DNA of 64,000 bases. Source: a plasmid. Location of the stretch: sequence record NZ_CP137560.1; one strand, 5' to 3'. The notes beneath the pieces were generated by a model that had not been told where the DNA came from, did not search any database, and was given only the letters and a program-made list of their open reading frames with translations. The number at the start of each line of letters is the position of its first letter. The first letter of the stretch is position 1. The position numbers and the translations under genes are program-made. Shown here in pieces: positions 14,306-53,041 of this stretch.

Positions 14306-15145
14306 ATGAAACTGAAAGAACTTTTACTTAGTACGGATTTTGACGCATTGATACCTGCCTTGAAAAAAGAAGGATCTTTGACCATTAGACAGTATCGGGA
14401 AGCATACGACATCCTCTGCCACCTTACTCCTGTGGATAATTCTGATATAGAGAATCATAAGATTGAAGTCGAGTGGCACACTCCTGATGAAGCCTTTGAA
14501 GATGAGGAGTCATACATCGATGTTTGCAATTGCGAAGGTGACCTTTGGGAAAGCAATGTCGCCAAGGAGGTAGTTGTTGCTGATGACTGCAACCTCAGCA
14601 AGGAGGAAGTGCTAGCCAAGATTCTTTGGAGTTGTACTTTCTATGGCTATACGCCACAAACTACCCAAGAAACCTTTGAGGACAGAATCGAGCACAAGAT
14701 GCACACCTGTTATGGTACTATGGCAAGAAAGTTAGAACAAAAGTACAATCTCAATTATTTGCCCGGACATAAAAAGAGAGAGGTTCTCAAAACAATGAGA
14801 CTCGCATCTCTTGATAGTATATCCATGAGCATGGAAGACGGGGACTATTGCAACAAGAGAATCGCCAAAGCATCCAATATAAGAAAGAAGCGTGACTATC
14901 GTATGCAGAAGAGAATTGACTATCTAGACTATAGAGAAAAATATGAAGGTCTCCGAGATAAGTTCATGGGTGGAAAGGACATCACTTTTCATGACATGGA
15001 CTTCATCTATGATGGTTTCTCTATGTTGCTAACCCACATGGAGACTCATACTTATGGAGAAAGCAGCAGAGTGGATTATCTGAAGAAACTGATAAAGTAC
15101 ATCGAGATGGATTCAGACAATGAGTTTTGTACCATTACAGCATGA
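14306..15145 (+). CDS. Hypothetical protein
   Basis: 279-aa ORF with a clean coding look; no recognisable motif. Confidence 0.5.
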   Translation: MKLKELLLSTDFDALIPALKKEGSLTIRQYREAYDILCHLTPVDNSDIENHKIEVEWHTPDEAFEDEESYIDVCNCEGDLWESNVAKEVVVADDCNLSKEEVLAKILWSCTFYGYTPQTTQETFEDRIEHKMHTCYGTMARKLEQKYNLNYLPGHKKREVLKTMRLASLDSISMSMEDGDYCNKRIAKASNIRKKRDYRMQKRIDYLDYREKYEGLRDKFMGGKDITFHDMDFIYDGFSMLLTHMETHTYGESSRVDYLKKLIKYIEMDSDNEFCTITA

Positions 15146-15251: not shown

Positions 15252-16989
15252 TTACTTTTTTACCTTTTTACTTTTTACCTTTAAAAGATGGATTGTCTGT
15301 GTTTTTTCCATGATGTTTGTTACCACGGCGATTCCGTTGTCACGAATCTCCACCTTCTCATATTTGGCATCCACAATCACCTTTCCTTTTAATGTCATAA
15401 CGCCCCAATGGTTAGGAATCTGTTCAAAGGCACAATAGGCACCGACAGGTTGCGCTATACTGTGGTAGAGAGGTGGCACGATAACTTTACCATCTACCTT
15501 CACACCCCATTTCTTTCCAGCTTGATATAATTCCACATGCCCAGTCTCTGACTTCTCATGCAAAAGAAGCAACTCGTTTGCTTCCATTTTCTTCTTTTGC
15601 AACATTGCCTCATGATAATATCTTTTGCCAAGTCGTGGCATTACATATTGTAAATCCTCCTCTTTGTTCTTTGGGTTATTGCATCCTATATATGTTTTTT
15701 TCAAATTAGAATCCACCAGATAGTAGTCTTCCTTACTGTCCATAACAACGATACCATCACCACAAAGATTGGCACACAGCCAATATACATGCTCATAATC
15801 ATTACGCAAGAAGCACACATCCTTACTCTCCGTATAATCCTTACGCATCAGACCGTCACCACCTTTATAATAGTACCATACTTGGCAACCACTGCCTACG
15901 GAAAAATCATTGTGGAATATCAAGTAATACCCACGATTCAACATGTCATTTTGTAAAGGACGATAAGGTAAAGCAAAGTCCTCGTAGGTACGAGACCTGA
16001 AGAGACCATTATATACAACGAACTCCCATTCATTGATGGTGATTACCTCGGGAGCATCCTTCGCGTGAATGTCCTCGTCGATGAGAACTCTCGCCAAAAG
16101 GTCATAATAACAAACAGTCTTTCTGCGAGGTCGATAGGATAAGATATTCCCTCGCAAGAACTTCATGTCATAATAGTTGCCAGGTTCTATCACCTGTTCG
16201 CCATGTCGATTTACCACCGTCCTCTTTACATCAGGCAGTTTGACGATAGCAAAATCATCATTGCAATCCACGAACTCCCGATACTGCAACGACCGCATCA
16301 GTTCCTCACGGCTCATCACCATCACCATTTCCGAGTCTTGCCCAACCGGCATCGTTTCTTGCTTTCCGTACATCAAGAAGAAATCCCTTCCCTTCAAAGT
16401 ATCCTTATTCTTTCCATATTTCAGTTTTCCTTCAAACGTAGCCTTCCAGTTCCATACTTGCGATGGCAATCCGAACACCCGATACAATCCCACGTTATCA
16501 ATAATCACACAGTTCTTCTTCCCCTTGGCTACCCGCAGTCCACGTCCCACCATCTGCAGATACTTGGCAAGCGAGAGAGTAGGACGCGCCAACTGCACAA
16601 ACTCCACATCCGGACAGTCAAATCCCTCCGAGAAAATATCCACATTCACCAGCACCTGGATATCACCTTTTCGGAAAGCCTCAATATCTGCTTGTCTTTC
16701 TATAGTAGGAGTCTTTGAGTTCAATGGCAACCACCTTGATGCCATGCTCTTGATACAGCTCCATAATTTTCTTTGCATGAGAAATATTAATAGCATACAC
16801 GATGCCCTTTCTATCTTTGCCATACTCCTCAAAGCTTTGGTAAAGCCTTTCGATGGAAGGTCTCTTGTTCAGCAACATATCCATTTCCTTGTTTTGATAG
16901 TCACCGTCAGCACCTCGCTTCAGCAAGGAGTCGATGAGCCGTTGCGTCACACCATCCGATTTGATGCTCACGAAATCGTATGTCGCCAA
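15252..16989 (-). pseudogene. Degraded superfamily-2 helicase: helicase C-terminal motifs IV-VI plus WG-repeat-like tail; frameshifted and lacking the ATPase N-domain
   Basis: Two overlapping frames (16681-16989 and 15252-16832) carry …GIVYAINISHAKKIMELYQEHGIKVVAI… and …DIFSEGFDCPDVEFVQ…QMVGRGLR; no motif I/II region upstream. Confidence 0.6.
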
Positions 16990-17147
16990 TCTTCCCTTAC
17001 TGATAAACTCAGGAAATACTTTAATTTAAATGGGTGAATTATTGTTTGCCATTTATTAAAGCATCGGCATGACCAAGTATATAATGTGTAAAAGTAGATG
17101 AAGTGAAGTGCTTTTGGTGATATTACCTATTATAGGTATAAACAATA

Positions 17148-17182
17148 AGAAGGGCTGAGTGTTTAGCTTTGCCCTTCTTCAA
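17148..17182. terminator. Hairpin terminator downstream of the S8 peptidase gene
   Basis: AAGAAGGGC-tgagtgtttagcttt-GCCCTTCTT. Confidence 0.5.
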
Positions 17183-17198
17183 TGTCTTATGGAGTATA

Positions 17199-19598
17199 TT
17201 ACACTTCTTGTGCAATAGGTACCCCTATACGATTGCTAATAGCTGTTTCTACAGCGTTGTATATGTCTGTCTCTTTGGTTTCTATTGAAACTATGAGAGA
17301 ATAGGGAACAGAATTGTCCACATTGTCCAGTTTCCTTTCTTTCCACCATCCTTGACCTGGAAATACTACTATCTTGTCCATTTCAGCCAAGTCTGCTGCA
17401 GTACATTCAATCCAGTCGGATTGTACAGTGCCTCTTTCTCGCTTTTGCTGTTTCACGTTCCATCTGGTTGCATCGTTTTGGGTGGTCTTTTCTCCTTCTT
17501 GCTTGTTCCTACGACACAGAAACTCTTCTTCTGTTTCTGTTGCTGTCTTTAGGTCAAAGTGCAATGTAGCAGATGGGTAGCGGTACTTGCTTGTCCTTCC
17601 GGCATAGCCAGGGGATGGCTTCACATAATATGATAATGTGATGCGGATTCTTACGTATTCGTCTCCCATATCTTCCAACAGTTCTTTTGGCCATGGCAAG
17701 TCGTAGTAGTGCATCTTGCCATATATGTTGCCACTGTCACCTTGTGTGTAGGGCTCCAGTTGATTCTCAAAAATATAAGTGGCGCATTTTTCGTTGCTAT
17801 ATACGGCTGCGTTCTCATCTGGAACGCCGTATCCACAGAGTGTCATACGCTCTTCAACATTATTTATACGCATCATTTCATCTGTCCATCGAGCAGAATG
17901 CACCATCAAGCCTCGGATGGAGAGCATTGACAGTTGCGGATTCTCCACTTTTATTTGTGCGGCAAGTCTTGCCGCCAATCCTGTAGCAGCACTTGTCGCA
18001 TTGAAAGGTTCCAATGGCTCTTCTTGCTCATTGCTGGTTGTTACAAGACTCAGGTCGCTATGTGAGGTTTCTCTGAGCAAGTCATGATAAGCTACATTTC
18101 CTCCTTCCATCACAATTTCTGGCTTATTGCGCTTCTCATGCCATGGGTATGAGCTACATGAATATGGCGATACACCACCTGGGGCTGCCAATGGCTTGAA
18201 ACTCTCATCGCCTACAAGAGTCTTTTCGGTATAGGCCCCTACAGTTAGGGCATTCCAAGCCTGTGCAGGGCTCTGCACTGCGTTTGCCTTACAGGATTCT
18301 ATATAGTTGTTATGGTCTACATCGGGTGTCTGTATGTTTCCTGCTGAAACCAAAACCAATCTGTCACATTGCCCCTGATGGTAGATGCTTTCATCAAGTG
18401 CTGCTGAACTGGAGGTGGCTATGCCGTTGTAGGCGCTTTCGTCTGTAATGGCCATGCATTGAATGGATGCACCCATATCCGAAGCTTTGCCGATGGCTTC
18501 TTCTATGACTGCTCCATAAAATTCCTTTGGTGTTTCATGCCCAGCCTCGTAAATTTTAACCGACGACAGTGCATGATGCACTGCTACTGGTGTTTCTCGT
18601 TGGTAGGCAATATTTGTCAAGTCACCAAGCAGGGCTAATCCTGCCATACCAGTACCGTGGTCTGTCTTGTCGGTTGCTTCCAGCACACCAATGGCTACAT
18701 CCATTCGCTCGTCTGGTAGTGCTGGCTTTAATAGTTCGTGTGCATTGTTCACTCCCGAATCCAATATGCCGACTATCACATCCGCATCTTGGTCGTAGGT
18801 GATTTCTCCTTTGATGAGTTCACTCCATTCTCTTTTCTCAGGGTTGCTGCTTGTCAGAATGGATGGCTTATGGTAGGGACGTATGCCTTCAATATATCCC
18901 AATGACAGTGGCAGGGTGCAGAGTTGTTGCTTGGTTGACTTAATCAACCATACATCAACACCATCAAAAAGCAAAGGCTCTGCCATCTTCTCTATACCCA
19001 GTTGATGCAAAGTGTTCTCTATGCGTTCTTGGCTGTTTTCTTTGCTATGGCTCATCCACAATTCGTAAATGTATGAGCCTTCTTCTGGTATTGTGTCAAA
19101 TTCTTCCGCTGACACGTAGAGTGTGCGAATGTCTGTTGCTTCTACACCATTGATAGGGGCGATCAACCTTTCATTGCATGGCTTTCCCTTTGCTGTATTC
19201 TTGGAAGAATAGTCGTCAACTTTATTTTTAAGCCAATCCTTCTTGTCCTTCTTTACATATACAGTAACGTCAACGTCATTTTCTTCTCCGTTGTCAGTTA
19301 CTTTCATGATGGTTGCTCCTTTTGGACTGTCTTGTTTGCCCAAAGAATCTGGTATGAAACTTTTGTCCATTTTCAAATCGACATAGATTCCGTTAGCCAC
19401 AGGCTGTCCTTGTTTTTCTCTTTCTTCCAAATGAGTAACAATCTGATTAACCACAGCTACGTATTGCTCCTTTACCATACTTGCTTGTGCAGCTCTGTCT
19501 TTTGAAGGAAGGGCATGACCGTCAAAGCCCTGTTTCTGTGGTGAAAAACCACGGGCTTCGGCTATATTGTTGCTTAAAAAGAAATGTTTCTTATGCAT
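17199..19598 (-). CDS. S8 (subtilisin-like) serine peptidase, no signal peptide
   Basis: Catalytic Asp (VGILDSGV), His (DHGTGMAG), oxyanion Asn (VSAGN) and Ser (NATSAATG); N-terminus MHKKHFFLSNNIAEARG is not hydrophobic. Confidence 0.85.
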   Translation of the reverse strand: MHKKHFFLSNNIAEARGFSPQKQGFDGHALPSKDRAAQASMVKEQYVAVVNQIVTHLEEREKQGQPVANGIYVDLKMDKSFIPDSLGKQDSPKGATIMKVTDNGEENDVDVTVYVKKDKKDWLKNKVDDYSSKNTAKGKPCNERLIAPINGVEATDIRTLYVSAEEFDTIPEEGSYIYELWMSHSKENSQERIENTLHQLGIEKMAEPLLFDGVDVWLIKSTKQQLCTLPLSLGYIEGIRPYHKPSILTSSNPEKREWSELIKGEITYDQDADVIVGILDSGVNNAHELLKPALPDERMDVAIGVLEATDKTDHGTGMAGLALLGDLTNIAYQRETPVAVHHALSSVKIYEAGHETPKEFYGAVIEEAIGKASDMGASIQCMAITDESAYNGIATSSSAALDESIYHQGQCDRLVLVSAGNIQTPDVDHNNYIESCKANAVQSPAQAWNALTVGAYTEKTLVGDESFKPLAAPGGVSPYSCSSYPWHEKRNKPEIVMEGGNVAYHDLLRETSHSDLSLVTTSNEQEEPLEPFNATSAATGLAARLAAQIKVENPQLSMLSIRGLMVHSARWTDEMMRINNVEERMTLCGYGVPDENAAVYSNEKCATYIFENQLEPYTQGDSGNIYGKMHYYDLPWPKELLEDMGDEYVRIRITLSYYVKPSPGYAGRTSKYRYPSATLHFDLKTATETEEEFLCRRNKQEGEKTTQNDATRWNVKQQKRERGTVQSDWIECTAADLAEMDKIVVFPGQGWWKERKLDNVDNSVPYSLIVSIETKETDIYNAVETAISNRIGVPIAQEV

Positions 19599-19611
19599 AA
19601 AGTTCCATTAT

Positions 19612-20571
19612 TTAGCAGGTTTGACGATTTAACTGCTGACGCATATTCACTATGGTCTGAACCAGTGGAAGGTCTATCTTCCTGTCATTAAGTAGGGATT
19701 CCTTAAATATGTCTGAACAAACCATCTTGATTTCGGCATGACTCATGCCATCAAACAAGGGCTCTACAGATGAGAAATCCAAGTCCTTTGCAGTATAGAG
19801 ATATTCACGAAGCAATGCTAATCGCTGTTCTCTATCTGGCAATTTATACTCTATGACATCATCAAAACGCCTAAACATGGCTTTATCTATGGATTCTATG
19901 CTATTGGTGGCAGCTATGATAAAACTGTCAGAATCATCTCGCTCCAACAGTTGTAGGAACGTATTGAGTATTCTTCGCTGTTCGCCAACTTCGTTGTCCA
20001 TTCCTCGCCGAGAACCGATGGCGTCAAATTCGTCAAACAGATATACTGCTGGTACTTCATTGATAAAATCAAAGATTCTACCTAGCTTCTGACCTGTTTC
20101 CCCCATGAACTTGGTCACAACTTTTTCAGTTCGCACAACAAAGAACGGCAAATTGAATTCTTTTGCAAGGGCACTGGCTGTCATCGTCTTTCCTGTTCCC
20201 GATGCTCCATACAATAGGAGCTTTCGGCGATTTGCCAATCCGTACTTACTTAGAGTTTCTTTCTTTAGATACTCTTTGATGACTCTGTCCAGTTTCTCTT
20301 TCAACTCCTGACTGAGTACCAGACTTGTCAAGTCATCATAGGTATCTACTTGCAGCAGCAAGTCATCTATATCCTTGTTTTTAGACACCAAACGTACCGT
20401 ACCCAAGGATGTTTTCTTTTGGTTGAGCAATTCTTGTATGGTACGTGCTACTATGGCATGACCACTCCTTGCCTCCACAGCGGAAATCTGCAGGGCAACC
20501 TTTCTGAATTGCGTATCATCGTTGTTCTGATGATTTCGTATCAGAGATAATATTTGATCAGCTGTAGCCAT
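19612..20571 (-). CDS. AAA-family ATPase (classic clade)
   Basis: Walker A GASGTGKT, Walker B YLFDEFD, arginine-finger region; 14 bp upstream of the S8 gene, so an operon. Confidence 0.85.
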   Translation of the reverse strand: MATADQILSLIRNHQNNDDTQFRKVALQISAVEARSGHAIVARTIQELLNQKKTSLGTVRLVSKNKDIDDLLLQVDTYDDLTSLVLSQELKEKLDRVIKEYLKKETLSKYGLANRRKLLLYGASGTGKTMTASALAKEFNLPFFVVRTEKVVTKFMGETGQKLGRIFDFINEVPAVYLFDEFDAIGSRRGMDNEVGEQRRILNTFLQLLERDDSDSFIIAATNSIESIDKAMFRRFDDVIEYKLPDREQRLALLREYLYTAKDLDFSSVEPLFDGMSHAEIKMVCSDIFKESLLNDRKIDLPLVQTIVNMRQQLNRQTC

Positions 20572-21070: not shown

Positions 21071-21646
21071 TCATTTCTTATTTCTAAGTTCATTAAACTG
21101 TGAGACATTGTAAAACTCCGTAAAGGCACCTCCCTTGCTTTGGTTTCCACAAGAATGAGCATGGCCAAAGACATGGAAACGAGGTTGAGAGCGATAAACC
21201 TCTAACAGTAGAGGAAGGCTTCCCCTACCCTCGTCAAGTATGCCTTCCGGTGGAATATGGGTAATCAAGAAGTCCATTTTGGTAGCAGATTGGACATTTT
21301 GCTCCTTACTTTGCAAGCTTCGCATGGATATATTCCCAAAACTTATCCCATCAAACTCAAAGGTGGAGTCATGAAGGAAAACTACTTTTTTAGGTAAAAG
21401 CGAAATTGTCTGCTCTAAGCAGTCTTCCAAGAACAGCTCATGATTACCTGCGACAAAAATATAAAGTTTGGCAGGATGGCTTAACAACCAGGAAAAGAAG
21501 TTCTCCATGCCATCCTTGCCAAAGTCAGACACTACATCGCCAGCACAAAGCAGGATGTCTGCTTCTTCAGGGATATGAAGCCGCTTGTGCATTCCATGAG
21601 AGTCAGAGAATGCAAAAATCCGATGTTCCTTATAGTTAAATAGCAT
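21071..21646 (-). CDS. Calcineurin-like metallophosphoesterase
   Basis: Motifs D-x-H (FSDSHG), GDxxD (AGDVVSD) and GNHE (AGNHELF). Confidence 0.8.
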   Translation of the reverse strand: MLFNYKEHRIFAFSDSHGMHKRLHIPEEADILLCAGDVVSDFGKDGMENFFSWLLSHPAKLYIFVAGNHELFLEDCLEQTISLLPKKVVFLHDSTFEFDGISFGNISMRSLQSKEQNVQSATKMDFLITHIPPEGILDEGRGSLPLLLEVYRSQPRFHVFGHAHSCGNQSKGGAFTEFYNVSQFNELRNKK

Positions 21647-21664
21647 TGATCTAATCTTATAAAG

Positions 21665-22198
21665 TTAATACTTCAATGGTGAATCTGGGCAGAATCTCTT
21701 CCGTCCGCATTTTTTGCATTGGCTTCCATTCCATACGAAGTCAAACTGGTTGATGGCTTGCTCCACAAAGGAAGGGGCATTGGTCAGGACACCGGCCTCG
21801 AAATTTCTGTTTCTCTCCCCCTTCATGCCGAGGCCTGCACCTGTGAGGTTGGCTGACCCAACATAGGCAGTCTCCAAGTCAAAGATGACCATCTTGAAAT
21901 GTACCCTTGGGCACAAGACTCTCTCCAATCGTTTGGCAAGAATCGAATAATCATCAAAGTCCTTGCGGAAATTAGGGCCAGGCTCCTTGGCATGGATTAA
22001 CCGAACCTCCACTCCACGCTCAATTAATCGAGAGATGACTTTGAGAAAGGGAACGGTCATGGAACTGCTTTTTACATACAAATCCTTGATGTCTGCAGTC
22101 CCTATCCAAAGATGATGTTTCACGTTCGCTATCTTGGCGATGACATCAGTATAGTGGGCACCATTGCTTATGTATTTATAATACGTAGTTTCTGACAT
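21665..22198 (-). CDS. Phospholipase-D-family (HKD) nuclease, Nuc-like, with C-terminal Cys cluster
   Basis: Perfect HKD motif HFKMVIFDLETAYVGSAN; 177 aa single-HKD architecture; C-terminal CKKCGRKRFC. Confidence 0.8.
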   Translation of the reverse strand: MSETTYYKYISNGAHYTDVIAKIANVKHHLWIGTADIKDLYVKSSSMTVPFLKVISRLIERGVEVRLIHAKEPGPNFRKDFDDYSILAKRLERVLCPRVHFKMVIFDLETAYVGSANLTGAGLGMKGERNRNFEAGVLTNAPSFVEQAINQFDFVWNGSQCKKCGRKRFCPDSPLKY

Positions 22199-22235
22199 TT
22201 TATTTCATTTTTTAAGTGATACGAAACCTGTTTCC

Positions 22236-22640
22236 TTATTTTTCCTGGAACACTTTATAAACATCAAACCATAAACCATGCAACATGTCAAGCAGTTTGA
22301 TTTTATCATCTGAAGATATGGGTAAGCCGGCAATGTCCTCTGGCTCGAAGCTGACGGATGAGACTTCATTTTTTAGCTCTAGTAAGAGCATATCCATTCG
22401 TTTCTCCAAGTATTGTTTCAACCAAGAGAGTTCGTCAAAATCACAAGTTGGAATTTTGATGTTTGATACACATTTTTGTTTCTTATCACCTGTCACTGAG
22501 TACAAATTCGCAAACCATATATCGCCAAAGCCAACACTCAAACTGAGTTCTATGCTATATGTCTTTCCCATATAGGAAAAAACAGTCTCACTTTGAGCTT
22601 CATCACCTGTGTCAAAGTCAACCCATTGATTCATCTTCAT
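22236..22640 (-). CDS. Hypothetical protein (operon partner of the PLD nuclease)
   Basis: 134-aa ORF, 38 bp upstream of the PLD gene, overlaps the next upstream ORF by 23 nt. Confidence 0.5.
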   Translation of the reverse strand: MKMNQWVDFDTGDEAQSETVFSYMGKTYSIELSLSVGFGDIWFANLYSVTGDKKQKCVSNIKIPTCDFDELSWLKQYLEKRMDMLLLELKNEVSSVSFEPEDIAGLPISSDDKIKLLDMLHGLWFDVYKVFQEK

Positions 22641-22938
22641 ATGCTTGAATGATTAACAATAGTTGTTCTTCACTTGTGCCCAATGTCTCCTGTACAAGAT
22701 CCACCTTTATTCTGTCCATAAATGATTGTGACACAGACATAAGTTGAACCAGTTCTCCCATCAGCAAAGGATATTTTACAGAGGTGACGATTCGCATAGA
22801 CACCTTATTATATTTTGCCCAATCCACCAGGGTGTATTGCCTAAAAGACCGGCAGATAGCCTCTGCCCTGCTTTCTCCTTTCATTGGAAAGGAATAGATA
22901 CGGCGTTTTACCGATATTCCGTGTTTAGTTTGTTCCAT
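22618..22938 (-). CDS. Hypothetical protein (first gene of the PLD/metallophosphoesterase operon)
   Basis: 106-aa ORF with a translationally coupled overlap onto the downstream gene. Confidence 0.45.
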   Translation of the reverse strand: MEQTKHGISVKRRIYSFPMKGESRAEAICRSFRQYTLVDWAKYNKVSMRIVTSVKYPLLMGELVQLMSVSQSFMDRIKVDLVQETLGTSEEQLLLIIQAYEDESMG

Positions 22939-23053
22939 TATTTCTTATTACTTTATATCTATGACACAAAGGTAGTCTGAAAATGGGAAAAATTACTGCA
23001 CACCTGAAAAATATTTTAGGTGTGACAACATTTTACACAGGAAATATTTACCT

Positions 23054-24622
23054 TTGCCACAAAATAAATATACAATGGAAAAGAAAGAGATAAAGCTACA
23101 AATGAAGGAACTCATCAAACTGATGAGTAAAGGAGTATGGGAAAAAGAGGACATCTTCTCCTTGACCTTGCTTAGCAGCATTGCTGGCGAAAGCATATTC
23201 TTGCTGGGGCCTCCCGGAACTGGCAAAAGTATGATTGCCAGAAGGCTCAAGGAAGTATTCGCCGAAAAGAAACAATTTGAATACTTGATGTCGCGTTTCT
23301 CTACCCCAGACGAGATCTTTGGACCAGTTTCCATATCCAAACTGAAAGACGAGGATACTTATGAAAGAAGAACTGAAGGGTATCTTCCATGGGCAAATGT
23401 GGTGTTTCTGGATGAAATCTGGAAAGCGGGACCTTCCATTCAAAATGCCTTGCTGACAGCCATCAATGAGAAAATCTACCAAAACGGAAATGAGACCATC
23501 AAGCTTCCTATGAAAGCACTCATTGCTGCATCCAATGAGTTACCTAAAGAGGATGAAGGGTTGGAAGCCCTTTGGGATAGATTCATATTACGAGTTGTCT
23601 CTAACCCCATAGCCAATGAACGTACATTCTACAAGATGCTAAAGGGGAAGAACAAGAGTAAAGTTGTCATTCCTGCCGAACTTCTCATAACAGACGAGCA
23701 ATACACACAAATCCTTGAAGAGGTGGAAGATATCGATATTCCTGACAATATACTCAAGGATATCACATTCATTCGCAAGAAGCTAAAAGAGACCGAGTCA
23801 CAGGATGAAGCCGCGAGTCCTCTAGACTATTATATATCAGACAGAAGATGGAAGAAAGCAGTACATCTGCTGCAAACATCGGCATTTCTAAATGGAAGAA
23901 AGGAGATAGACCTAACCGATCTTCCCATACTCTATCATGTGCTATGGAACAAGGTAGAGACCATTGAACCTGTCATGAAAATCGTTACAGAGTCATTATT
24001 CTGGAACATTGAGAATAAATGCTCAGTTGTGGAGAAAGAGTATGAAAAAGGGTTGAAAACGAAAGGCAATGCATTGGCAAACAGTAAAATAGCCAATATC
24101 AATTCTGAAGATTTCAACATCTATTTCTACTTCTATACCAAGCTTATGGGCACAAACTGGGGAGACACCTACTTCTTTCTCCAAGATTATGGATACCTGC
24201 TGATGGACATCGAGACGAAGGGTGTGCTCTATTTTGATAAGGATAAGAATGGATGGATTATCAGGAGAGTTCCTCAAGGTCCCTTCTCATCCAAGAAGTA
24301 TCCACAGCACCAAATCGTCAGTTTGAGAAGGGCGCAAGGTGGAATTATCGTAAATAATGCACTCTACATGATGGAACCATCAAAGATGGCTAGCAAGCCC
24401 ATTTTCCCTCCTACAGGGCAACAAAACTTGTTTTCTGAAGGAGACACACATCTCATTGAGGAGATGCAAAAAATAGGCAATGAACTTAACCAAAAGATGA
24501 GGTTGCTGGAAAAGGAAAATCTATTTGTGTCTTCAACTGACTTGAAGGTCATCCAAAAGTATGCCGACAACTTGCGAAAGAAATGTGAGGCGTTGGAAAT
24601 GAAGATAAAAACTAGCATATAA
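23054..24622 (+). CDS. MoxR/RavA-class AAA+ ATPase
   Basis: Walker A GPPGTGKS; MoxR-type Walker B/sensor block VVFLDEIWKAGPSIQNALLTAINEKIY. Confidence 0.85.
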   Translation: MPQNKYTMEKKEIKLQMKELIKLMSKGVWEKEDIFSLTLLSSIAGESIFLLGPPGTGKSMIARRLKEVFAEKKQFEYLMSRFSTPDEIFGPVSISKLKDEDTYERRTEGYLPWANVVFLDEIWKAGPSIQNALLTAINEKIYQNGNETIKLPMKALIAASNELPKEDEGLEALWDRFILRVVSNPIANERTFYKMLKGKNKSKVVIPAELLITDEQYTQILEEVEDIDIPDNILKDITFIRKKLKETESQDEAASPLDYYISDRRWKKAVHLLQTSAFLNGRKEIDLTDLPILYHVLWNKVETIEPVMKIVTESLFWNIENKCSVVEKEYEKGLKTKGNALANSKIANINSEDFNIYFYFYTKLMGTNWGDTYFFLQDYGYLLMDIETKGVLYFDKDKNGWIIRRVPQGPFSSKKYPQHQIVSLRRAQGGIIVNNALYMMEPSKMASKPIFPPTGQQNLFSEGDTHLIEEMQKIGNELNQKMRLLEKENLFVSSTDLKVIQKYADNLRKKCEALEMKIKTSI

Positions 24623-24630
24623 TTTTTAAT

Positions 24631-25977
24631 ATGGAAGATATAGACAAACGGATTGACGAATATTCTGGGCTTTTTGACCTCTACATCGAGGGGAAGCCCA
24701 TTCCTCCAGAGTACAAGGATGATCCTGTGGCAGGGTATATAGAAGAAATCTGCCAAGACTCAGGAAACAAGGAACTTTGCAGAAAAGAAGAGACATGGAA
24801 AGAAATTTTCAGAAAGGAAATTATTTCCATGTTGGAGGGTATATTGCCTGTCGTTTCCACAATAGAGAGGGAATATGAGGAAGAAATGAAGATATTATCC
24901 CACTTCTTTGCATCCAACATAGAGCAAAAACGCCTGGCATGGAACGGTATCGCCAAGCACTTGCACGATACTTTCGACTGCAGCATGTTCAATATACATG
25001 GATATATCCAGGAATTTGGAAAAAAACAGAAAACTACTGACGAAATTTTTGATGCCATGGAAGCTAATTGGAAAGAGGCTAGCAAGAAGAGGAAAGACCA
25101 GAAGATTGCGCAAGTACTTTCCAATAGTATGCAAAAAATTGAGCAAGAAATCATAACCTGTGGTGACATAGACTACAAGAAGGAACAGAAGAAGGCTCGT
25201 TTCTTCCACAAGTACCCTCAACTAAAGGAGATAGCCAAGAAGATGGGAAGGGAAAAAGAGAGAAGTGAAGAAATGGATGATGCCACCATGACTAGATACA
25301 TTCCTATATTACTCAAGCATTCCCATGACAGGCAAGACATAGATGGCGTATCCTTGGGAAATGACCTGGATAGCTTGCTTCCCACGGAGATTGCCATGAT
25401 GGACTCTCCCACCTTTTATGCAAAGTTTGCAAAAAGACAGCTGCAGCAATTTTCCTCAAAGGCTGCACAGAACAAGCGTGAAAAATCAACGGTTCATTAT
25501 AAGAAGCCTCGCCTTCTGCAAGGCCCCATGATTATTTGTATTGATACAAGTGGATCCATGAGTGGTAGACCTTTGGAAATCGCAAAGTCTCTATTGCAGC
25601 AACTCGCGGCTATAGCGAAAAAGGAAAAGAGAAGCTGTTTTCTCATCTCGTTCTCTATCAGAACAAAGACCTTGGACTTGGCAAGACCCAGTAATTATTA
25701 TAAGATAGATAAATTCTTCAAGGGCAGCTTTTCCGGGGGTACTAATGGGGAAAAAATGCTAATGGAAATTTTCAAGATGCTCGATTCTGAAAAATATTCC
25801 ATGGCCGATGCACTTATCATCAGCGACTTCTGTTTTCCTCTTCCTATAAAAAAAACAATGCAGAGACTGAAGGAAGAACAAGAAAAAGGAACTCGTCTCT
25901 ACGGACTTAATGTCCAAAGAAGAAATCCATACGCAAAGGACTACAAGGAAATTTTAGATAAGATGTGGAACTTATGA
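24631..25977 (+). CDS. VWA-domain protein (ViaA-like partner of the MoxR ATPase)
   Basis: C-terminal von Willebrand A domain with MIDAS D-x-S-x-S (ICIDTSGSMSG); 8 bp after the ATPase gene. Confidence 0.8.
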   Translation: MEDIDKRIDEYSGLFDLYIEGKPIPPEYKDDPVAGYIEEICQDSGNKELCRKEETWKEIFRKEIISMLEGILPVVSTIEREYEEEMKILSHFFASNIEQKRLAWNGIAKHLHDTFDCSMFNIHGYIQEFGKKQKTTDEIFDAMEANWKEASKKRKDQKIAQVLSNSMQKIEQEIITCGDIDYKKEQKKARFFHKYPQLKEIAKKMGREKERSEEMDDATMTRYIPILLKHSHDRQDIDGVSLGNDLDSLLPTEIAMMDSPTFYAKFAKRQLQQFSSKAAQNKREKSTVHYKKPRLLQGPMIICIDTSGSMSGRPLEIAKSLLQQLAAIAKKEKRSCFLISFSIRTKTLDLARPSNYYKIDKFFKGSFSGGTNGEKMLMEIFKMLDSEKYSMADALIISDFCFPLPIKKTMQRLKEEQEKGTRLYGLNVQRRNPYAKDYKEILDKMWNL

Positions 25978-26585
25978 CGACAAAATATACAATCAACCCT
26001 TCGCTCAGGTTATGCACATGGTGCCTTGTAGTAGGATGGCATGAGGTGAAAGACTCACTCTTGCAATCCGAAAGCATTTTTTCATGTGAAGGAAGAAGTA
26101 TCTATACCAAAGGAGACCGATGTATGATTATGGCGCAAGTAAACGAAAAGAGAATTGATTTTTATTACTGCCATGACACAAAATTCGACAACAGAAACAT
26201 TCAAAGTTGGCTAAGAAATATCATTAAGAATAAGATTCTAGACCTGGCAAACATTGAACTCCCCAAGAGATTGCATTATTGGGAAAAGGAGAAAAATCTA
26301 TATGCAAGACAAGTCATCATAAAAAAATTGAAGAGAAGGAACATATGGGGGCAATGTTCCATCTATAAACAGATTTTCTTGCCGCCAAAGATTGTGGTTT
26401 TCCCATTGGAATTGATTGACGAGATTATCCTACATGAAATGAGTCATCTCAAATTTATGCATCATAGGAAACAATTTTGGGAGTACTTTAGTTTCCTGCT
26501 AGGTAGAGATGCCAAACTATGCAAAATGAAGGAAAGTGTATTTTTCGCCAAATACGACGAAATGATAGAGTTCTTACTAAAATAA
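25965..26585 (+). CDS. DUF45/YgjP-like HExxH metal-dependent hydrolase
   Basis: HEMSHLKFMHHRKQFWEYF matches the YgjP/SprT-like H-E-x-x-H…H…FW signature; overlaps the VWA gene by 13 nt. Confidence 0.7.
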   Translation: MELMTTKYTINPSLRLCTWCLVVGWHEVKDSLLQSESIFSCEGRSIYTKGDRCMIMAQVNEKRIDFYYCHDTKFDNRNIQSWLRNIIKNKILDLANIELPKRLHYWEKEKNLYARQVIIKKLKRRNIWGQCSIYKQIFLPPKIVVFPLELIDEIILHEMSHLKFMHHRKQFWEYFSFLLGRDAKLCKMKESVFFAKYDEMIEFLLK

Positions 26586-26654: not shown

Positions 26655-27560
26655 ATGGCTATCAATCAATTGAACAAATATGTCTGGCTCGTAGAGACCA
26701 TTCATCGAGCAAGGAACCGGGGTGGCATCACCTTGAAGGAGATTCAAAGCAGATGGTTGGATTCTGACATTAGTGAAGGAACGGAACTTTCTCGCCGTAC
26801 CTTCATCAATAATCTCCATGCCATCGAGGAACTGTTTGAGATTAATATCGAATGCGGCAGCGGATTCCGCTATCACATTGAGTATGGTGACTGTTTCGAG
26901 GAAGGAAGCGCCAGGAACTGGTTGCTCAACGCCTTCTCGCTCAATGCTATGGTAGGTAACAGCCGCAAGCTCAAGGAGAGGGTTCTCCTGGAGGACATGC
27001 CATCTGGCAGGAACTTCCTGGAGGATATCATCAAGGCGATGCGCGACAACCACGTCATATTCATCTCTTACTACAGTTACTATAACGAAAAGTATTATGA
27101 GTTTGACATCCATCCTTATTTCGTGAAGGCTTTCAAGAAACGTTGGTATGTGGTCGCATATAGTCCTGGCACGAACGATATCCGTTGCTATGCACTTGAC
27201 CGTATGGAGAATGTCATCATCTCCGAGGAAGTGTTCAAGATGCCTAAGAATCTGGAACCAGCTGAATACTTCAAGGATTGCTTTGGCATCATCAATAACA
27301 AGGATTCCGAAGTTCAAAAGGTAGTGCTAAAGGTTGATGCCTTCCAGAGTAACTACATACGCAATCTTCCTCTCCATGAGTCGCAAAAGGAAGCAGAGCG
27401 AACAGAAGAATACTCCATCTTTGAGTATCACTTGAAACCAGAATTTGATTTTGAACAGGAGATTTTCTCTAACATGGATACCGTGGAGGTGTTGGAACCT
27501 CTATGGCTAAGAGAAGAGGTGAAGGAAAGAATAAAAAATCTTGCAAGTAAGTATCTTTGA
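26655..27560 (+). CDS. WYL-domain transcriptional regulator (N-terminal HTH + WYL)
   Basis: WYL core KKRWYVVAYSPGTNDIRCYALDRM; 301 aa is a typical size. Confidence 0.8.
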   Translation: MAINQLNKYVWLVETIHRARNRGGITLKEIQSRWLDSDISEGTELSRRTFINNLHAIEELFEINIECGSGFRYHIEYGDCFEEGSARNWLLNAFSLNAMVGNSRKLKERVLLEDMPSGRNFLEDIIKAMRDNHVIFISYYSYYNEKYYEFDIHPYFVKAFKKRWYVVAYSPGTNDIRCYALDRMENVIISEEVFKMPKNLEPAEYFKDCFGIINNKDSEVQKVVLKVDAFQSNYIRNLPLHESQKEAERTEEYSIFEYHLKPEFDFEQEIFSNMDTVEVLEPLWLREEVKERIKNLASKYL

Positions 27561-27593: not shown

Positions 27594-28799
27594 CTAAATA
27601 TCCAGTCCCTTGACACAATCTATAGCTTCGTCAAACATTCTTGAGAAATCATTTAAAGTTTTACCGTTCAGCAAGTCTTTTATCCCAGAGGCATTATCCC
27701 AATATTGATTTCCATTAAAAATCTTCCAAATCCAATATTGGTCACTTTGGGAGGAATAATTCTTTTGAACATTTTCCCAGTCTTTTACATCTTCACGCTT
27801 GACTCCAGTTTTTGTGCGAAAGCCAAAGTATGGATCTCTCATTCCTCCGCAATTAAATCCAAATGCAAGTCTAAGATACTTCCAATGGTGATTATAAAAT
27901 GATGCTACTACATCCGATTTTTTCATCCAATTCTCTGTACAATCATCTCCCATAATCAACCCTTTGCTTTCTGCTAAATCCCTTAATTTAGGAATAAACA
28001 CTTCTTTTATAAATCTGTTTACAACAATATTTTTATTGTTTGCAATATCATAAATTGCATCTAAATTTTCTTCTTTACATAGAATATCTAATAGGTCCTT
28101 ATTATCTTCCATAACGTTATTTGTTAATATGTCAATAGTACTAATATATTGATTGATAGTTTCTCTCACGAGCGGAGTTCTTGAAGCCAACTCCACGCAA
28201 CGATCAAGCCATCCTCTAATATCACTCTTATAGGATAGGCAAACTATATCATTTTCCTTTAAGTCTTCACCCAAAGATTCTTTTGAAGGAGAGCAACCAT
28301 CCAATGTCAAGTAAATCAATACAAATGATTTTTCCGTATCGTCTCCTTTTTGTGACATTCCATAATTCCAGTATCTTAGCATCTGATGATATTGGTCAAC
28401 TGCATAGATTTTATTTTCTATGATAATACTATGCTTGCCATCAGTAAGATAAATATCTATTCTGCCGCCTTCACTATCAGTTTGCCTACCTATATATTTC
28501 TCTACTTCTACAGAAGCGATAGTCGTGTCTATTTCTAAACTATCTGCAGATATTGCAGGAAATGTTTTTTGCAGCATTTTCAAAAATGCCTCAAGGAATT
28601 TGCCTCTTTGTCCGTGACTTCCTTTTGGATTCAGCAGGTTTGCCAAAAACATAGAGTGTAGATGGACTTCATCTGACATGAAGCCCAAATCATTGAAAAT
28701 ATTATAATTTTCACCACGCTCAAACTTTTCTTTTCTTTGTTCTTTTATTTTTCGTGAAACTATTCGAACTTGGTTTAGAATATTGATTATATCATTCAT
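27594..28799 (-). CDS. PD-(D/E)xK nuclease-superfamily protein
   Basis: GRIDIYL…IIIENKIYA gives the D…E-x-K catalytic arrangement; last gene of the AAA-HAD operon. Confidence 0.55.
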   Translation of the reverse strand: MNDIINILNQVRIVSRKIKEQRKEKFERGENYNIFNDLGFMSDEVHLHSMFLANLLNPKGSHGQRGKFLEAFLKMLQKTFPAISADSLEIDTTIASVEVEKYIGRQTDSEGGRIDIYLTDGKHSIIIENKIYAVDQYHQMLRYWNYGMSQKGDDTEKSFVLIYLTLDGCSPSKESLGEDLKENDIVCLSYKSDIRGWLDRCVELASRTPLVRETINQYISTIDILTNNVMEDNKDLLDILCKEENLDAIYDIANNKNIVVNRFIKEVFIPKLRDLAESKGLIMGDDCTENWMKKSDVVASFYNHHWKYLRLAFGFNCGGMRDPYFGFRTKTGVKREDVKDWENVQKNYSSQSDQYWIWKIFNGNQYWDNASGIKDLLNGKTLNDFSRMFDEAIDCVKGLDI

Positions 28800-28863
28800 C
28801 GCATTATAAGCTATAATTGTTTACCTTAGAAACGAAATTCCATCTAATTTATTGTAGAAGTTA

Positions 28864-29505
28864 TTATTTTTGCCAATGAAAATGACTACGCAAACACTCT
28901 TTGTACATTAGGGCACGACGATTCATGTTGTTCATCTCTTTTTCTGGATACCAACAAAAATAAGCCATGAAAAGCATCACCATAAGGATATAGACCGCAA
29001 TAAATTTTAGGGCACCATAAAACCAACGTTTCATTTGACTGATCTCTTTGGTATTTAAAATTTGAATTGCTACTCTCACATCAGCCTTATCAAGACCTTT
29101 GCTACCTTCAACTTTCACCAGATGTTCTCGTTGAGAAAACAGAAAATCTTCCTCGTCATCAAGAATTATATAACGATAAGGCTCTTTGGCGTTCAATCTT
29201 AGCCATTCTGCAATCTCCAAGCCTTTACATCCATGTAAGCCTTGCCATTCCTCCACCCCATCTACATTGCTAAAGTTAACGGAATTGCAAGAAGGTGTCA
29301 AGCCTATGACTTCGCCTGGCATATGGTGTTCCTGCCACAACTTCTGTATGTACTTCATACCTTGCAATCGCCAAGTGGAAGAAATGATGATCTTGGCATC
29401 ACTTCTTTCCACCAAATGGAGCAAATTGGCTACAGCTTTCTTAGCAAATTTACCTTTTGGAGTATTGATTACTCCATCAAAATCTAAAAATATATACTTC
29501 TCCAT
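28864..29505 (-). CDS. HAD-superfamily phosphatase (HAD_SAK / polynucleotide-phosphatase-like) with C-terminal TM helix
   Basis: Motif I FLDFDGVINT (DxDGV); small cap-less HAD; 25 bp downstream of the AAA gene. Confidence 0.65.
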   Translation of the reverse strand: MEKYIFLDFDGVINTPKGKFAKKAVANLLHLVERSDAKIIISSTWRLQGMKYIQKLWQEHHMPGEVIGLTPSCNSVNFSNVDGVEEWQGLHGCKGLEIAEWLRLNAKEPYRYIILDDEEDFLFSQREHLVKVEGSKGLDKADVRVAIQILNTKEISQMKRWFYGALKFIAVYILMVMLFMAYFCWYPEKEMNNMNRRALMYKECLRSHFHWQK

Positions 29506-29529
29506 ACCTTTTTTGTTATATATCAGCCG

Positions 29530-31203
29530 TTAGAATCCAATTTTTCTCTTGGTACGACTCCCTTCCAGTCTTTCATTTTCACAAAACTCAACAAGGGATT
29601 TGGCCATGTTCTCTGGCTGGCCATGCAATATCGACTGGATGGTAAAATGACGGGCGATGTTCTCTATTTCACCACCGCTGAAATCATACTTGCCCGCCAG
29701 GTAACTGGCATCGGCATCATTCAAAGGCGGAATCATCGCTTGCCAAATCTGAGTACGGCAATTCAAGTCTGGCTTCTCAAACTGTATCTTATAGAGGAAA
29801 CGGCGCTCGAAGGCCTTGTCCATGTTCTCTGCGAGGTTGGTCGTGGCAATGAGGATGCCATCCAACTGTTCTATCTCCTGAAGGATGATATTCTGAATAC
29901 TGTTTTCCATCTTCTCAACGGCTCTTTCCGCCCCCACCTGACGCTTGCCGATGATGGCATCAGCCTCGTTGAAAAGCAAGATGGGTGCCTTGGCTAATTG
30001 TTTCACCTTCTTCTTATAATCATCGAAGATGCCCTTGATATTCTTTTCGCTCTCGCCTACCCACATGCTCTTAACCTCTGAAACGTTCACCTGAATCAAG
30101 TCACGGCCAGTCTTCTTGGCTATCTGAAGCACAGTCTCTGTCTTTCCTGTACCAGGCGCACCATAGAAAAGGCAGGCAAAGCCGCTTCTGAAGTTGGTTT
30201 CTTTCAATCGATTTTTGATACGCTGGAAATGCTCCTCATCCAAGAGGGAAGTTAACTCTTCCACTTGCCTTTGTTCCTTGCTATTGTAGAATAGTTGCTT
30301 GGGGCTGATGTCCTCAAAGGATAGCATGCCACCCTTCGGGCGAGAACCACGCATGGATGATAGGTTGAGTTCCGAGAAAAGCTGTTTCTTGGCATCATCC
30401 GTAATTTTGAACGACTCTCTATCCACAAAGCCATCATCATTGGTATATTCAATGAACTTCTCCACAAAAAACAAGTGATCACCTTGACTCAAGCCTCGCT
30501 TTTCGCATCGCCATTCTGCATCGCCTTCTTTATATATAAATTCCAAGTCGTGGTATCGGATGTCATCATCACCATTGACAACAAAGAGTGTACAAAACAA
30601 GACGAAAAGCGGGAAGTACAGATCATCCGCATCTACATCGTAGGAAGCCATCGCCTTGACAAAAGCCAACTTTTCGTTCTTGGCTACCAATGCCCTCAAT
30701 TTCCTTCTCAGCACTTGTTTGTCAATCTTTCTACGGCGACATTTCGTAAACAACTCATCGAACTTGTCAAATAGTTCTCTGGCTGTAAGTTCCTCCACAT
30801 CCATAGGATTATAACGCTCATTATGTTGGAACGCCTCCATCACCTCCATTGGGATGGTATAATAGAAACCTTCATCCCTATTGCGGCAGATATATTCCTT
30901 GTCAACAAGCTCTTGGATTTCATTGGCATATCGAAGCAAGCTAAGGATGCGGCAGCCCAAGAAATCCGTAAAGTCCGAGAACTGGATGTGACTGTCATCG
31001 CATCTGTCGGCAAACAAGGCCATGATGGCACTGGCACGCTTGGATATGTCCAGTTTATCGGAGACAAATCCAAGATATGAATCAGTCTCCTCATAGAACT
31101 TCTCACCCAGAGAAGAATTCTTTGCCTTATCTACGATTATTTCGAATGCTTGGAGCAAGTCCATCTGCTCCATATCTTTTTTACACGACGTTTGCATAAC
31201 CAT
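29530..31203 (-). CDS. AAA-family ATPase with about 330-aa N-terminal domain of unknown function
   Basis: Walker A GAPGTGKT, Walker B ILLFNEAD, sensor-1 and arginine-finger region in the C-terminal 230 aa. Confidence 0.85.
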   Translation of the reverse strand: MVMQTSCKKDMEQMDLLQAFEIIVDKAKNSSLGEKFYEETDSYLGFVSDKLDISKRASAIMALFADRCDDSHIQFSDFTDFLGCRILSLLRYANEIQELVDKEYICRNRDEGFYYTIPMEVMEAFQHNERYNPMDVEELTARELFDKFDELFTKCRRRKIDKQVLRRKLRALVAKNEKLAFVKAMASYDVDADDLYFPLFVLFCTLFVVNGDDDIRYHDLEFIYKEGDAEWRCEKRGLSQGDHLFFVEKFIEYTNDDGFVDRESFKITDDAKKQLFSELNLSSMRGSRPKGGMLSFEDISPKQLFYNSKEQRQVEELTSLLDEEHFQRIKNRLKETNFRSGFACLFYGAPGTGKTETVLQIAKKTGRDLIQVNVSEVKSMWVGESEKNIKGIFDDYKKKVKQLAKAPILLFNEADAIIGKRQVGAERAVEKMENSIQNIILQEIEQLDGILIATTNLAENMDKAFERRFLYKIQFEKPDLNCRTQIWQAMIPPLNDADASYLAGKYDFSGGEIENIARHFTIQSILHGQPENMAKSLVEFCENERLEGSRTKRKIGF

Positions 31204-33122: not shown

Positions 33123-33409
33123 CCCCTTTTTTATTAAAGGAGATTTATGGCAAATTGATAAATATTCACAACATGCTCAATCCTTGTTTTTTTCAGGCTT
33201 GAGTATATTTTTTCTTATCTACGCAGAAAGACTGCATACCCATGTTGTAACTTTGCATCCGAAAACAAGAAATATGGATATTTGGAGGTCAAGCGATGCT
33301 TACTTCATTAATGAATCGCTAGTACTGTTGTAGTACTAGAGCTATGGGTACTCAGCATGGCTATTACCTCCAATTTTCATTGCTTGAAGATAGTTTATGG
33401 CTGCGATAG
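33121..33409. repeat. Repeat C copy 2 (promoter-containing module immediately upstream of the tRNA-like gene)
   Basis: About 96% identical to 12344-12632; contains TTG…(about 17 bp)…TAgtTTaTG, a Bacteroidetes-type -33/-7-like promoter, just before the RNA start. Confidence 0.8.
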
Positions 33410-33525
33410 CTCAGCTGGTAGAGCATAGTTTTGTGTGGGAATTACCATCATCAAGCTGGTCAACTCACACATACTGCTGCAATGAAAGCCTAGTGTCGCT
33501 GGTTCGATTCCAGCTTGCAGCCCCA
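33400..33525 (+). ncRNA. tRNA-like RNA gene with canonical acceptor stem, D-arm, T-arm and encoded CCA, but an about 70-nt structured insert in place of the anticodon arm
   Basis: 5' GCUGCGA-UA-GCUC-AGCUGGUA-GAGC-A, then 72 nt containing an 8-bp stem UGUGUGGG/CUCACACA around an ACCA…UGGU hairpin, then GCUGG-UUCGAUU-CCAGC, UUGCAGC-C-CCA; no 5-7-5 anticodon stem-loop can be drawn. Confidence 0.5.
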
Positions 33526-46173: not shown

Positions 46174-46199
46174 ACTTGTATGACATTTTTAATATGGCA

Positions 46200-48680: not shown

Positions 48681-48766
48681 CCTATCTAGCACACGATTCT
48701 GTTTGTATAATTGGTCTTAAATGGCTATATACCAGCCTATGAAGCATCTGGCAAGACAGAATCGTA

Positions 48767-52940: not shown

Positions 52941-53041
52941 AGGAAAAAAAGGTGTACCATACTCAATATGTGGCACACCTTTTTTCCTTATTTTTAGATT
53001 ATTCTTTTAAAAAATGACCAGAGTAGCAGGATGACGGTATA

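Follow-up and report, generated by a model that had tools for sequence, protein, structure and literature searches.

A modular cargo operon with a putative PLD nuclease-metallophosphoesterase pair in a WYL-anchored defense island on plasmid NZ_CP137560.1

Nucleases of the phospholipase D (PLD) superfamily can act as single-gene defenses, such as the END nucleases (PMC12191111), and calcineurin-type phosphodiesterases have been listed among the effector domains that target nucleotides in conflict systems of the MoxR-vWA and GTPase types (Kaur et al. 2020, PMC7159879), so that there is a precedent for each part of a unit that combines both enzymes. Among the MoxR-vWA systems, the β-propeller ternary system is defined by bpMoxR together with a vWA protein that ends in a β-propeller, the third component being of the TPR/β-propeller type (PMC7159879). 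CapW-type WYL repressors control defense operons and sense single-stranded DNA (PMC9122588, PMC11662680). Here, we analyzed a 64,000-nt stretch of plasmid DNA from sequence record NZ_CP137560.1 (hereafter the window), which harbors at positions 21071-22938 a transcription unit of four genes, designated s106, s134, PLD177, and MPE191. The original prediction had suggested that these genes constitute a four-gene operon in which a PLD nuclease is coupled to a metallophosphoesterase and two small proteins. Our analysis, which is based on sequence comparison, favors a modular cargo operon of separable parts rather than a four-component machine. Within this operon, which belongs to a WYL-anchored island, PLD177 and MPE191 might form a facultative two-enzyme module, whereby the functions of both proteins are predicted; we hold this reading tentatively and rate it somewhat short of an even chance.

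The first gene of the unit is s106 (22618-22938, minus strand), which encodes a small conserved α/β protein of 106 aa. It is followed on the same strand by s134 (22236-22640), encoding a lineage-restricted small protein of 134 aa, by PLD177 (21665-22198), encoding a single-HKD PLD-superfamily protein of 177 aa that is predicted to be a Nuc-like homodimeric nuclease, and by the last gene MPE191 (21071-21646), encoding a calcineurin-like, MPPED2-like metallophosphoesterase of 191 aa from the PADLOC PDC-S10 family. The list of open reading frames (ORFs) agrees with the originally described arrangement of four tightly packed minus-strand genes and with the 23-nt overlap between s106 and s134. The two downstream gaps, which had been given as 38 and 19 bp, are indeed short but amount to 37 nt (22199-22235) and 18 nt (21647-21664), respectively. 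All four ORFs are real coding genes under purifying selection. The ratio of non-synonymous to synonymous substitution rates (dN/dS) relative to orthologues was 0.07-0.25 for s106, 0.07-0.09 for PLD177, and 0.09 for MPE191; for s134 it was 0.34, whereby the comparison lineage carries s134 as a pseudogene. Since these ratios are low, the four ORFs evolve as proteins. A reading of s106 and s134 as a single frameshifted gene was rejected because both frames are kept as separate ORFs in relatives and s106 occurs alone elsewhere.

PLD177 contains the HKD motif HxK(x)4D(x)6GSxN (H100-F-K102...D107...G114-S115-A-N117) within its residues 100-117 (HFKMVIFDLETAYVGSAN), and the protein matches the Pfam families PLDc_2 (51.6 bits, cut-off 27; 1e-13) and PLDc (29.9 bits, cut-off 21.9). 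The motif is invariant across 24 homologues, as are the four cysteines C96, C161, C164, and C170, which probably form a Zn site, so that both the HKD motif and the Cys cluster of the original prediction hold. Further motifs conserved in the family are WIGTADIKD and HAKEPGP. It had also been considered that the PLD protein could turn out by profile search to be a recognized cardiolipin or phospholipid enzyme, which is not the case: The curated cardiolipin-synthase models of NCBIfam yielded 13 bits for ClsB (cut-off 281) and 11.8 bits for bac_cardiolipin (cut-off 290). An assignment as cardiolipin or phosphatidylserine synthase was therefore rejected, as the scores are far below the cut-offs and PLD177 has one HKD domain instead of two; the name “cardiolipin synthase-like” of JGI homologues is a generic source annotation. 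The best, albeit weak, matches of PLD177 are nuclease-type PLDs, namely DrmC, NucT, DpdK, MkoB, the poxvirus nicking-joining enzyme, PLD3, and Nuc. The structural relatives were found in the PDB with the family profile (poxvirus nicking-joining enzyme 8e-4, PLD3 3e-3, Nuc 1byr 0.11), whereas a search with the single sequence yielded only a weak phospholipase match. Because the Cls models score only 12-13 bits and the best weak matches are nuclease-type PLDs, PLD177 is, as judged from its sequence, a Nuc-like single-HKD protein and not a recognized lipid enzyme, in agreement with the single-HKD, nuclease-like domain call made at the outset.

The PLD177 family is large, comprising more than 8000 clusters at 90% identity, and occurs in at least 573 species-representative genomes from Bacteroidales and Fibrobacter with a uniform identity of 63-70%. 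Searches of the operon and of PLD177 against plasmids and phages gave no DNA or protein match. In 81 species loci with a PLD homologue, a phosphoesterase gene was found close to the PLD gene in three cases (L030, L010, L002; locus numbers with L refer to the relatives compared), a MoxR gene in two, and a WYL regulator gene within 6 kb in 15, while neither s106 nor s134 was found near PLD in any of the 81. A Pfam scan of 139 genes flanking PLD relatives revealed a mixture of defense or mobile-element types (WYL/WCX, McrBC, PDDEXK, Fic, AAA_21) and some housekeeping genes (TrmD, glutathione peroxidase), whereby the commonest family occurred no more than seven times. From this absence of a conserved partner across the 81 loci, we infer that the PLD family behaves as an autonomous single gene.

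MPE191 shows the motifs DxH (D15, H17), GD (D37), GNHE (N68, H69), H130, and GHxH (H162, H164), all of which are conserved in the family, and it matches Pfam Metallophos with 37.8 bits (cut-off 21.5; 3e-9). Thus, the metallophosphoesterase motifs assigned to the 191-aa protein were confirmed, with all five intact. The protein also matches the PADLOC model PDC-S10 (PDLC04908) with 134 bits (1.1e-39) over profile positions 8-204 of 223; PADLOC models PDC-S10 computationally, as a single-gene candidate. The earlier statement that no named system could be recognized is therefore right for the four-gene set, which matches none, but not for the phosphoesterase, which was already catalogued as a PDC-S10 candidate. 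With 115 clusters, the MPE family is far smaller than that of PLD, and the MPE family profile has MPPED2 (3rl4) as the sole match in the PDB (3.6e-21). MPPED2 belongs, by MPPED1/2 enzymology, to a family of the cyclic-nucleotide phosphodiesterase type. In phages, only distant homologues with less than 34% identity were detected. Among the relatives, MPE is nearly always the final gene of a short unit, whereby the partners vary: Besides PLD, they include a nucleoside-deoxyribosyltransferase (NDT)-like protein of PF05014 (L082-85, MPE 81% identical), a 296-aa protein together with a 715-aa Sel1-repeat protein (about 20 loci), and two unknowns of 378 and 238 aa located where a Bacteroides integrative element ends. 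WYL regulators recur near MPE in these relatives. C-terminal fusions of MPE were also observed (L168-L181, L180-L188), with DUF6557 in proteins of 346 aa and with a different domain of about 220 aa in proteins of 409-418 aa, and free DUF6557 genes recur beside unfused MPEs. The fusions and the recurrent free genes together hint at a functional link between MPE and DUF6557.

The two-enzyme reading is based on the pairing of PLD and MPE. In a neighbor-joining tree of MPE sequences, the PLD-linked copies fall into two clades, namely the window clade and a clade with L030, L189, and L193, which are mutually 42-45% identical. The spacing between both genes on the same strand is 18 nt in the window clade, 14 nt in L030, 14 nt in L193, and -1 nt in L189, where start and stop overlap. 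Since this tight spacing recurs in two distant MPE clades, a facultative two-enzyme module is suggested, and the recurrent pairing may be new; a literature search revealed no paper that joins PLD, metallophosphoesterase, and defense islands. Furthermore, MPE carries a premature stop (codon 166 or 171, two independent events) in four of 11 complete loci from which PLD is deleted (L122, L133, L134, L136), and in none of the PLD-intact relatives. The stop is located directly past the GHxH motif. Truncated MPE clusters (P0125, 170 aa; P0129, 176 aa) are also abundant in the protein database. The proposed coupling of a PLD protein to a phosphoesterase thus did not survive as a four-gene system, but the narrower PLD-MPE pair recurs and is plausible.

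The distribution of the four genes among close relatives is patchy, with nearly all possible combinations represented. All four are intact in at least seven independent human-gut contigs (L114-116, L118, L119, L121, L126), with proteins that are 92-100% identical to those of the window. In these four-gene loci, the WYL gene is the immediate neighbor, and of MoxR and YgjP no more than remnants (aa 1-19 and aa 186-206, respectively) persist in between. L120 and L122 resemble the window in having the MoxR cassette, and their PLD gene is reduced to the last 20 codons. In L123-125, L127-131, L133, L134, and L136, PLD is deleted and s134 and MPE are retained, whereby s106 in the PLD-deleted relatives of the L123-136 set is full-length in some loci and limited to codons 65-106 in others. 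Loci L086-091 and L132 carry a TAA at codon 62 of s106 and a frameshifted s134 together with intact PLD (93%) and MPE (86-87%). In L138 and L139, the WYL gene is followed by PLD-MPE without the small genes, in L141 WYL stands with MPE alone, and L098 contains s106 and PLD only, with s106 overlapping the PLD start by 31 nt. Compared with the L086 lineage, the synonymous substitution rate (dS) is 0.31-0.36 for s106, s134, and PLD, 0.84 for MPE, and 1.17 for MoxR and WYL, and because these values differ between the genes, the operon is a recombination mosaic. Two chimeric ORFs were noticed as well: P0356 is s134 read through into the C-terminal Cys tail of PLD after PLD deletion, and P0005 joins about 130 PLD residues to about 100 MPE residues. 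Both are therefore further signs of deletion turnover in the operon. The four-gene synteny assumed by the original prediction is found only in near-identical human-gut strains and does not extend beyond them, as the 81 species loci show (s106 and s134 in none, phosphoesterase in three). With the full set confined to such strains and partial combinations present in relatives, there appears to be no obligate four-part system.

In the relatives, s106 is the resident gene that lies divergent from the WYL regulator gene, across a conserved bidirectional promoter, and in hundreds of contigs it is found alone beside WYL. Neither s106 nor s134 had a significant match in Pfam, NCBIfam, PHROG, or PADLOC; the top values (Lsr2 0.039, PgaD 0.025, phrog_13688 0.21) are at chance level. 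That s106 is an HTH protein, as guessed from its sequence, was not supported by the structure model. For s134, which is nearly an orphan, an exhaustive HMMER search retrieved one diverged full-length relative (L101); the structure model of s134 was poor and uninformative, and likewise the gene context in L101 was uninformative. These results favor s106 as part of the framework of the slot and s134 as a young, lineage-specific accessory gene.

The conserved sequence upstream of s106 (22939-23074) is a candidate bidirectional promoter region. It contains a Bacteroidetes-type -7 box TACCTTTG for s106 on the minus strand (22967-22974), the same box for MoxR on the plus strand (23049-23056), and between them the inverted repeat CACACCT-N12-AGGTGTG (22999-23024) as a candidate operator. 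The 7-nt dyad was confirmed by direct pattern search, whereas the repeat finder did not report it. A scan for sigma-70 promoters and terminators stayed at the level of shuffled sequence, whereby this consensus is not applicable to Bacteroidetes. The TTG at 23054, listed as the MoxR start, falls within the -7 box, and the conserved MoxR N-terminus MEKKEI begins at ATG 23075, so that the latter is probably the true start. The distance of 115 bp to the MoxR start, as originally given, applies only if TTG is used; with ATG 23075 the start-to-start spacing is 136 bp. The divergent orientation of the operon to the MoxR genes holds, as the MoxR cassette is located upstream on the opposite strand. Upstream of s106, about 110 bp are conserved among the window, L114, L098, and L092, and the same region is found in L138 directly upstream of PLD, facing the WYL gene. 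In most relatives the gene across the promoter from the cargo is the WYL-WCX regulator, whereas in the window the MoxR-vWA-YgjP cassette intervenes and WYL is 3.6 kb away. In all loci where the cargo lies opposite WYL, the promoter and the dyad are retained, and they are predicted to function as promoter and operator. Judging from the analogous repressors of the CapW type, WYL would be expected to silence the cargo operon until DNA damage or infection lifts the repression.

The gene content of the surroundings, with IetA/IetS, PDC-S26, MoxR-vWA, and WYL, identifies the setting as a phage-defense island. Directly downstream of the operon lie IetA (19612-20571; PADLOC 1e-65) and IetS (17199-19598; PADLOC 2e-36), followed by a truncated helicase_C/WG-repeat ORF with restriction-enzyme-like PADLOC matches (15252-16832) and a DUF6557 gene (14306-15145), which is 99% identical to the L121 gene directly after the phosphoesterase. 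Relative to L121, IetAS and the helicase fragment (15252-20571) constitute an insertion between MPE and the DUF6557 gene. On the other side, the plus-strand cassette of MoxR (bpMoxR type), vWA, and a YgjP-like metallopeptidase (23075-26585) matches Pfam bpMoxR with 7e-54 and YgjP-like with 2e-19, while the VWA_2 and VWA_CoxE matches of the vWA protein remained below the Pfam gathering cut-offs. It was rejected as a MoxR-vWA β-propeller ternary system, since despite a bpMoxR score of 182 bits the 448-aa vWA protein has no propeller and the third gene is YgjP-like. In many near-identical relatives this cassette is cleanly missing, with only MoxR codons 1-19 and YgjP codons 186-206 left, and the L086 lineage has a split vWA and a truncated YgjP; the cassette is therefore decaying or being lost. 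Diverged MoxR-vWA genes adjoin PLD or PLD-MPE in L071, L046, and L189. The winged helix-turn-helix (wHTH)-WYL-WCX regulator gene follows on the plus strand (26655-27560; Pfam WYL 5e-16, WCX 3.5e-9; PADLOC WYL 2.5e-30), and then, on the minus strand (27594-31203), a PDDEXK_4 gene (PADLOC PDC-S26, 6e-99), HAD_SAK_2, and a gene for a 557-aa IetA-like AAA ATPase. The trio AAA-HAD_SAK_2-WYL recurs in relatives as the fixed framework of the island (L092-97, L086). A 752-aa Prok-RING_4 protein with a weak match in the window copy is encoded at 33625-35883 (plus strand); in relatives a protein of 752-754 aa is encoded within 2 kb of the PLD/MPE unit (L086 8792-11056; L098 6986-9244), and in the window it is 11 kb away. 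Just before this gene, at the edge of the island, Rfam predicted a full-length tRNA of 123 nt (33400-33522, plus strand; 43.2 bits). With default settings ARAGORN found none in this region, and allowing introns it reported only a tRNA-Val(cac) that contains an intron-like insertion. Both halves, 5' and 3', appear canonical, and about 45 extra nt lie in the middle of the molecule. Window positions 46000-53000 have a low GC content of 27-31% compared to about 40-45% elsewhere and may be a separately acquired segment. As the homologue source names are Prevotella sp. and Segatella sinensis and the near-identical contigs are from the human gut, the data point to a gut member of the Prevotellaceae (Prevotella/Segatella-like) as the host.

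Several observations weigh against a facultative PLD-MPE module. PLD is solitary in 78 of the 81 species loci and MPE is intact in seven of the 11 complete PLD-deleted relatives, so that neither enzyme needs the other, and the dS values of both genes differ 2.4-fold, which implies that they recombine apart. As just two independent events underlie the MPE truncations, their pattern supports dependence only weakly. As for the candidate operator, its arms are short (7 nt); more distant loci keep only a CACA...TGTG core, and since the pattern was found upstream of PLD in none of the 78 other species loci examined, it is lineage-specific. Our literature search found no functional study of PDC-S10, and the TrmD and glutathione peroxidase genes beside some PLD homologues may reflect a non-defense role of the family. 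It might thus be that PLD177 and MPE191 are independent single-gene elements that share a promoter in one WYL-linked slot and interact functionally neither with each other nor with the small proteins. The solitary occurrence of PLD amid heterogeneous neighbors, the intact MPE genes left after PLD deletion, and the divergent dS values fit this explanation, as do the PADLOC single-gene model of PDC-S10, the occurrence of MPE alone beside WYL (L141) and elsewhere behind unrelated partners, and the cassette flux of the island compared to close relatives, with IetAS inserted and MoxR-vWA-YgjP deleted. However, chance co-insertion is a poor explanation for PLD-MPE gaps of 0-18 nt in two clades that are 42-45% identical. 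Moreover, MPE is almost always terminal in a multi-gene unit and seldom lone, and its truncations are seen only where PLD has been lost. We regard independence as a real possibility, although we would sooner expect it to be wrong than right.

An obligate four-component defense system, with the small proteins as sensor or adaptor, PLD as effector, and a phosphoesterase that processes a signal or nucleic-acid ends, would account for the dense packing of the genes (23-nt overlap, short gaps), the four intact genes in the human-gut contigs, and the purifying selection on all four. Yet it is largely refuted by the distribution, and we consider it very unlikely: The small genes are absent from the 81 species PLD loci and also from the distant pairs L030, L189, and L193, the L086/L132 lineage keeps PLD and MPE intact beside an s106 with a nonsense codon and a frameshifted s134, PLD and MPE occur without small genes in L138 and L139, s106 and PLD alone in L098, s106, s134, and MPE without PLD in many loci, and s106 alone beside WYL in hundreds of contigs. 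That PLD177 is a toxic nuclease neutralized by s134 and/or s106 would be consistent with the position of the small genes immediately upstream of a potentially toxic cytoplasmic nuclease, with the 31-nt overlap of s106 and the PLD start in L098, and with the frequent natural PLD deletions, which fit a costly toxin. But PLD mostly occurs without a conserved small upstream gene, it has stayed intact both in the L086 lineage with its pseudogenized small ORFs and in L138 and L139, which lack them, and s134 and s106 outlast PLD loss, with s106 occurring without any PLD. A type II toxin-antitoxin pair was rejected, as a strict pairing of a small gene with PLD was not found, and toxin-antitoxin or immunity function in general seems very improbable indeed. 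Finally, the phosphoesterase could be a regulator that degrades cyclic or oligonucleotides and is functionally part of the divergent MoxR-vWA-YgjP system or of another signaling system, with PLD as the effector of that system. In favor of this, the sole solved relative, MPPED2, is of the cyclic-nucleotide phosphodiesterase type, PLD or PLD-MPE adjoins diverged MoxR-vWA genes in L071, L046, and L189, and calcineurin-type phosphodiesterases are among the MoxR-vWA effector domains (Kaur et al. 2020, PMC7159879). However, the domain scan of operon and cassette showed neither a nucleotide cyclase nor a signal-binding domain, many relatives with all four genes have lost the cassette by clean deletion, and MoxR is near PLD in only two of the 81 species loci, which renders this role extremely improbable.

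If PLD177 and MPE191 form a facultative module, the system might work as follows. As the resident first gene, s106 would share the bidirectional promoter and the dyad operator with the WYL-WCX side, and the WYL repressor would hold the unit off until phage-induced DNA damage or single-stranded DNA derepresses it. PLD177 would then cut nucleic acid and, by analogy, act as a Cys4-stabilized, metal-independent homodimer with a phospho-histidine intermediate. MPE191, as a binuclear-metal phosphodiesterase, would hydrolyze nucleotide phosphodiesters or phosphorylated ends that arise in the attack. In this scheme the nuclease activity of PLD177, the substrate of MPE, the control by WYL, and the anti-phage effect are all predictions. 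More far-reaching, and in our view unlikely, is the idea that the locus represents an undescribed two-enzyme anti-phage module of gut Prevotellaceae, in which the MPPED2-like phosphodiesterase would be a promiscuous helper with interchangeable effectors (PLD nuclease, NDT-like nucleotide hydrolase, Sel1-repeat protein), all wired to WYL via the bidirectional promoter that is conserved at these loci, and in which s106 would represent a novel, widespread partner of that regulator.

Above all, the locus is an example of cassette turnover in a WYL-anchored defense island, which will not surprise specialists. Defense-island cargo and the catalogued PDC-S10 family are of known kinds, and two leads stand out, namely the PLD-MPE pairing, which may be new, and the linkage of s106 to WYL. 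If the pairing is functional, it would provide a first mechanistic handle on PDC-S10 and would define a compact nuclease-based module in the Prevotellaceae, dominant human-gut bacteria whose phage defenses are poorly studied. The PLD177 family, being very widespread, unusually conserved, and uncharacterized, merits biochemistry in its own right.

Among the known systems, Nuc from Salmonella pKM101 (1byr) and NucT from H. pylori share with PLD177 the small size (about 155-180 aa) and the single HKD motif, and because there is one motif per protein, the active site must form by dimerization. The PLD family profile aligns with Nuc over the whole domain (query 49-155 to chain 42-146), although the similarity is marginal (E 0.11 to 1byr; NucT 18.9 bits at a cut-off of 297), and PLD177 has its own invariant Cys4, WIGTADIKD, and HAKEPGP. 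Nuc is periplasmic; inspection of the PLD177 N-terminus by eye revealed no secretion signal. DrmC of DISARM, MkoB/C of Mokosh, and DpdK provide the best PLD-domain matches in PADLOC and NCBIfam (DrmC 1.6e-7, DISARM_DrmC_I 4.7e-10, MkoB 9e-7) and stand in defense contexts as well, but their similarity to PLD177 is confined to some 50 residues of the motif region. No DISARM, Mokosh, or Dpd partner genes are present near PLD177, and a membership in DISARM was rejected, as DrmC reached 39.4 bits at a cut-off of 133 and there are no DISARM genes among the neighboring ORFs scanned. BfiI, SauUSI, and the END nucleases likewise use a PLD catalytic domain as anti-phage nuclease, also in single-gene systems (PMC12191111), but carry their own C-terminal DNA- or modification-recognition domain, whereas PLD177 consists of nothing but the catalytic domain and a short Cys-rich tail and has no methyltransferase partner. 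MPE191 shares its metal-binding motifs with MPPED2/MPPED1 (239FB/AB), which are related to class III cNMP phosphodiesterases; MPPED2, however, is a mammalian protein of 296 aa, and its match to the MPE family is split into two stretches. PDC-S10 is matched by MPE191 nearly end to end, and the location in a defense island with IetAS and PDC-S26 agrees with this assignment, but PDC-S10 is catalogued as a single gene, whereas the family described here is nearly always last in a multi-gene unit with varying partners. Finally, the locus resembles the WYL-WCX operons of the CapW/BrxR type in encoding a wHTH-WYL-WCX regulator beside defense cargo, with a conserved promoter that contains a dyad; it differs from them by the MoxR-vWA-YgjP cassette, which in the window is located between regulator and promoter, and by its cargo of s106, PLD, and MPE, which is unlike that of CBASS or BREX.

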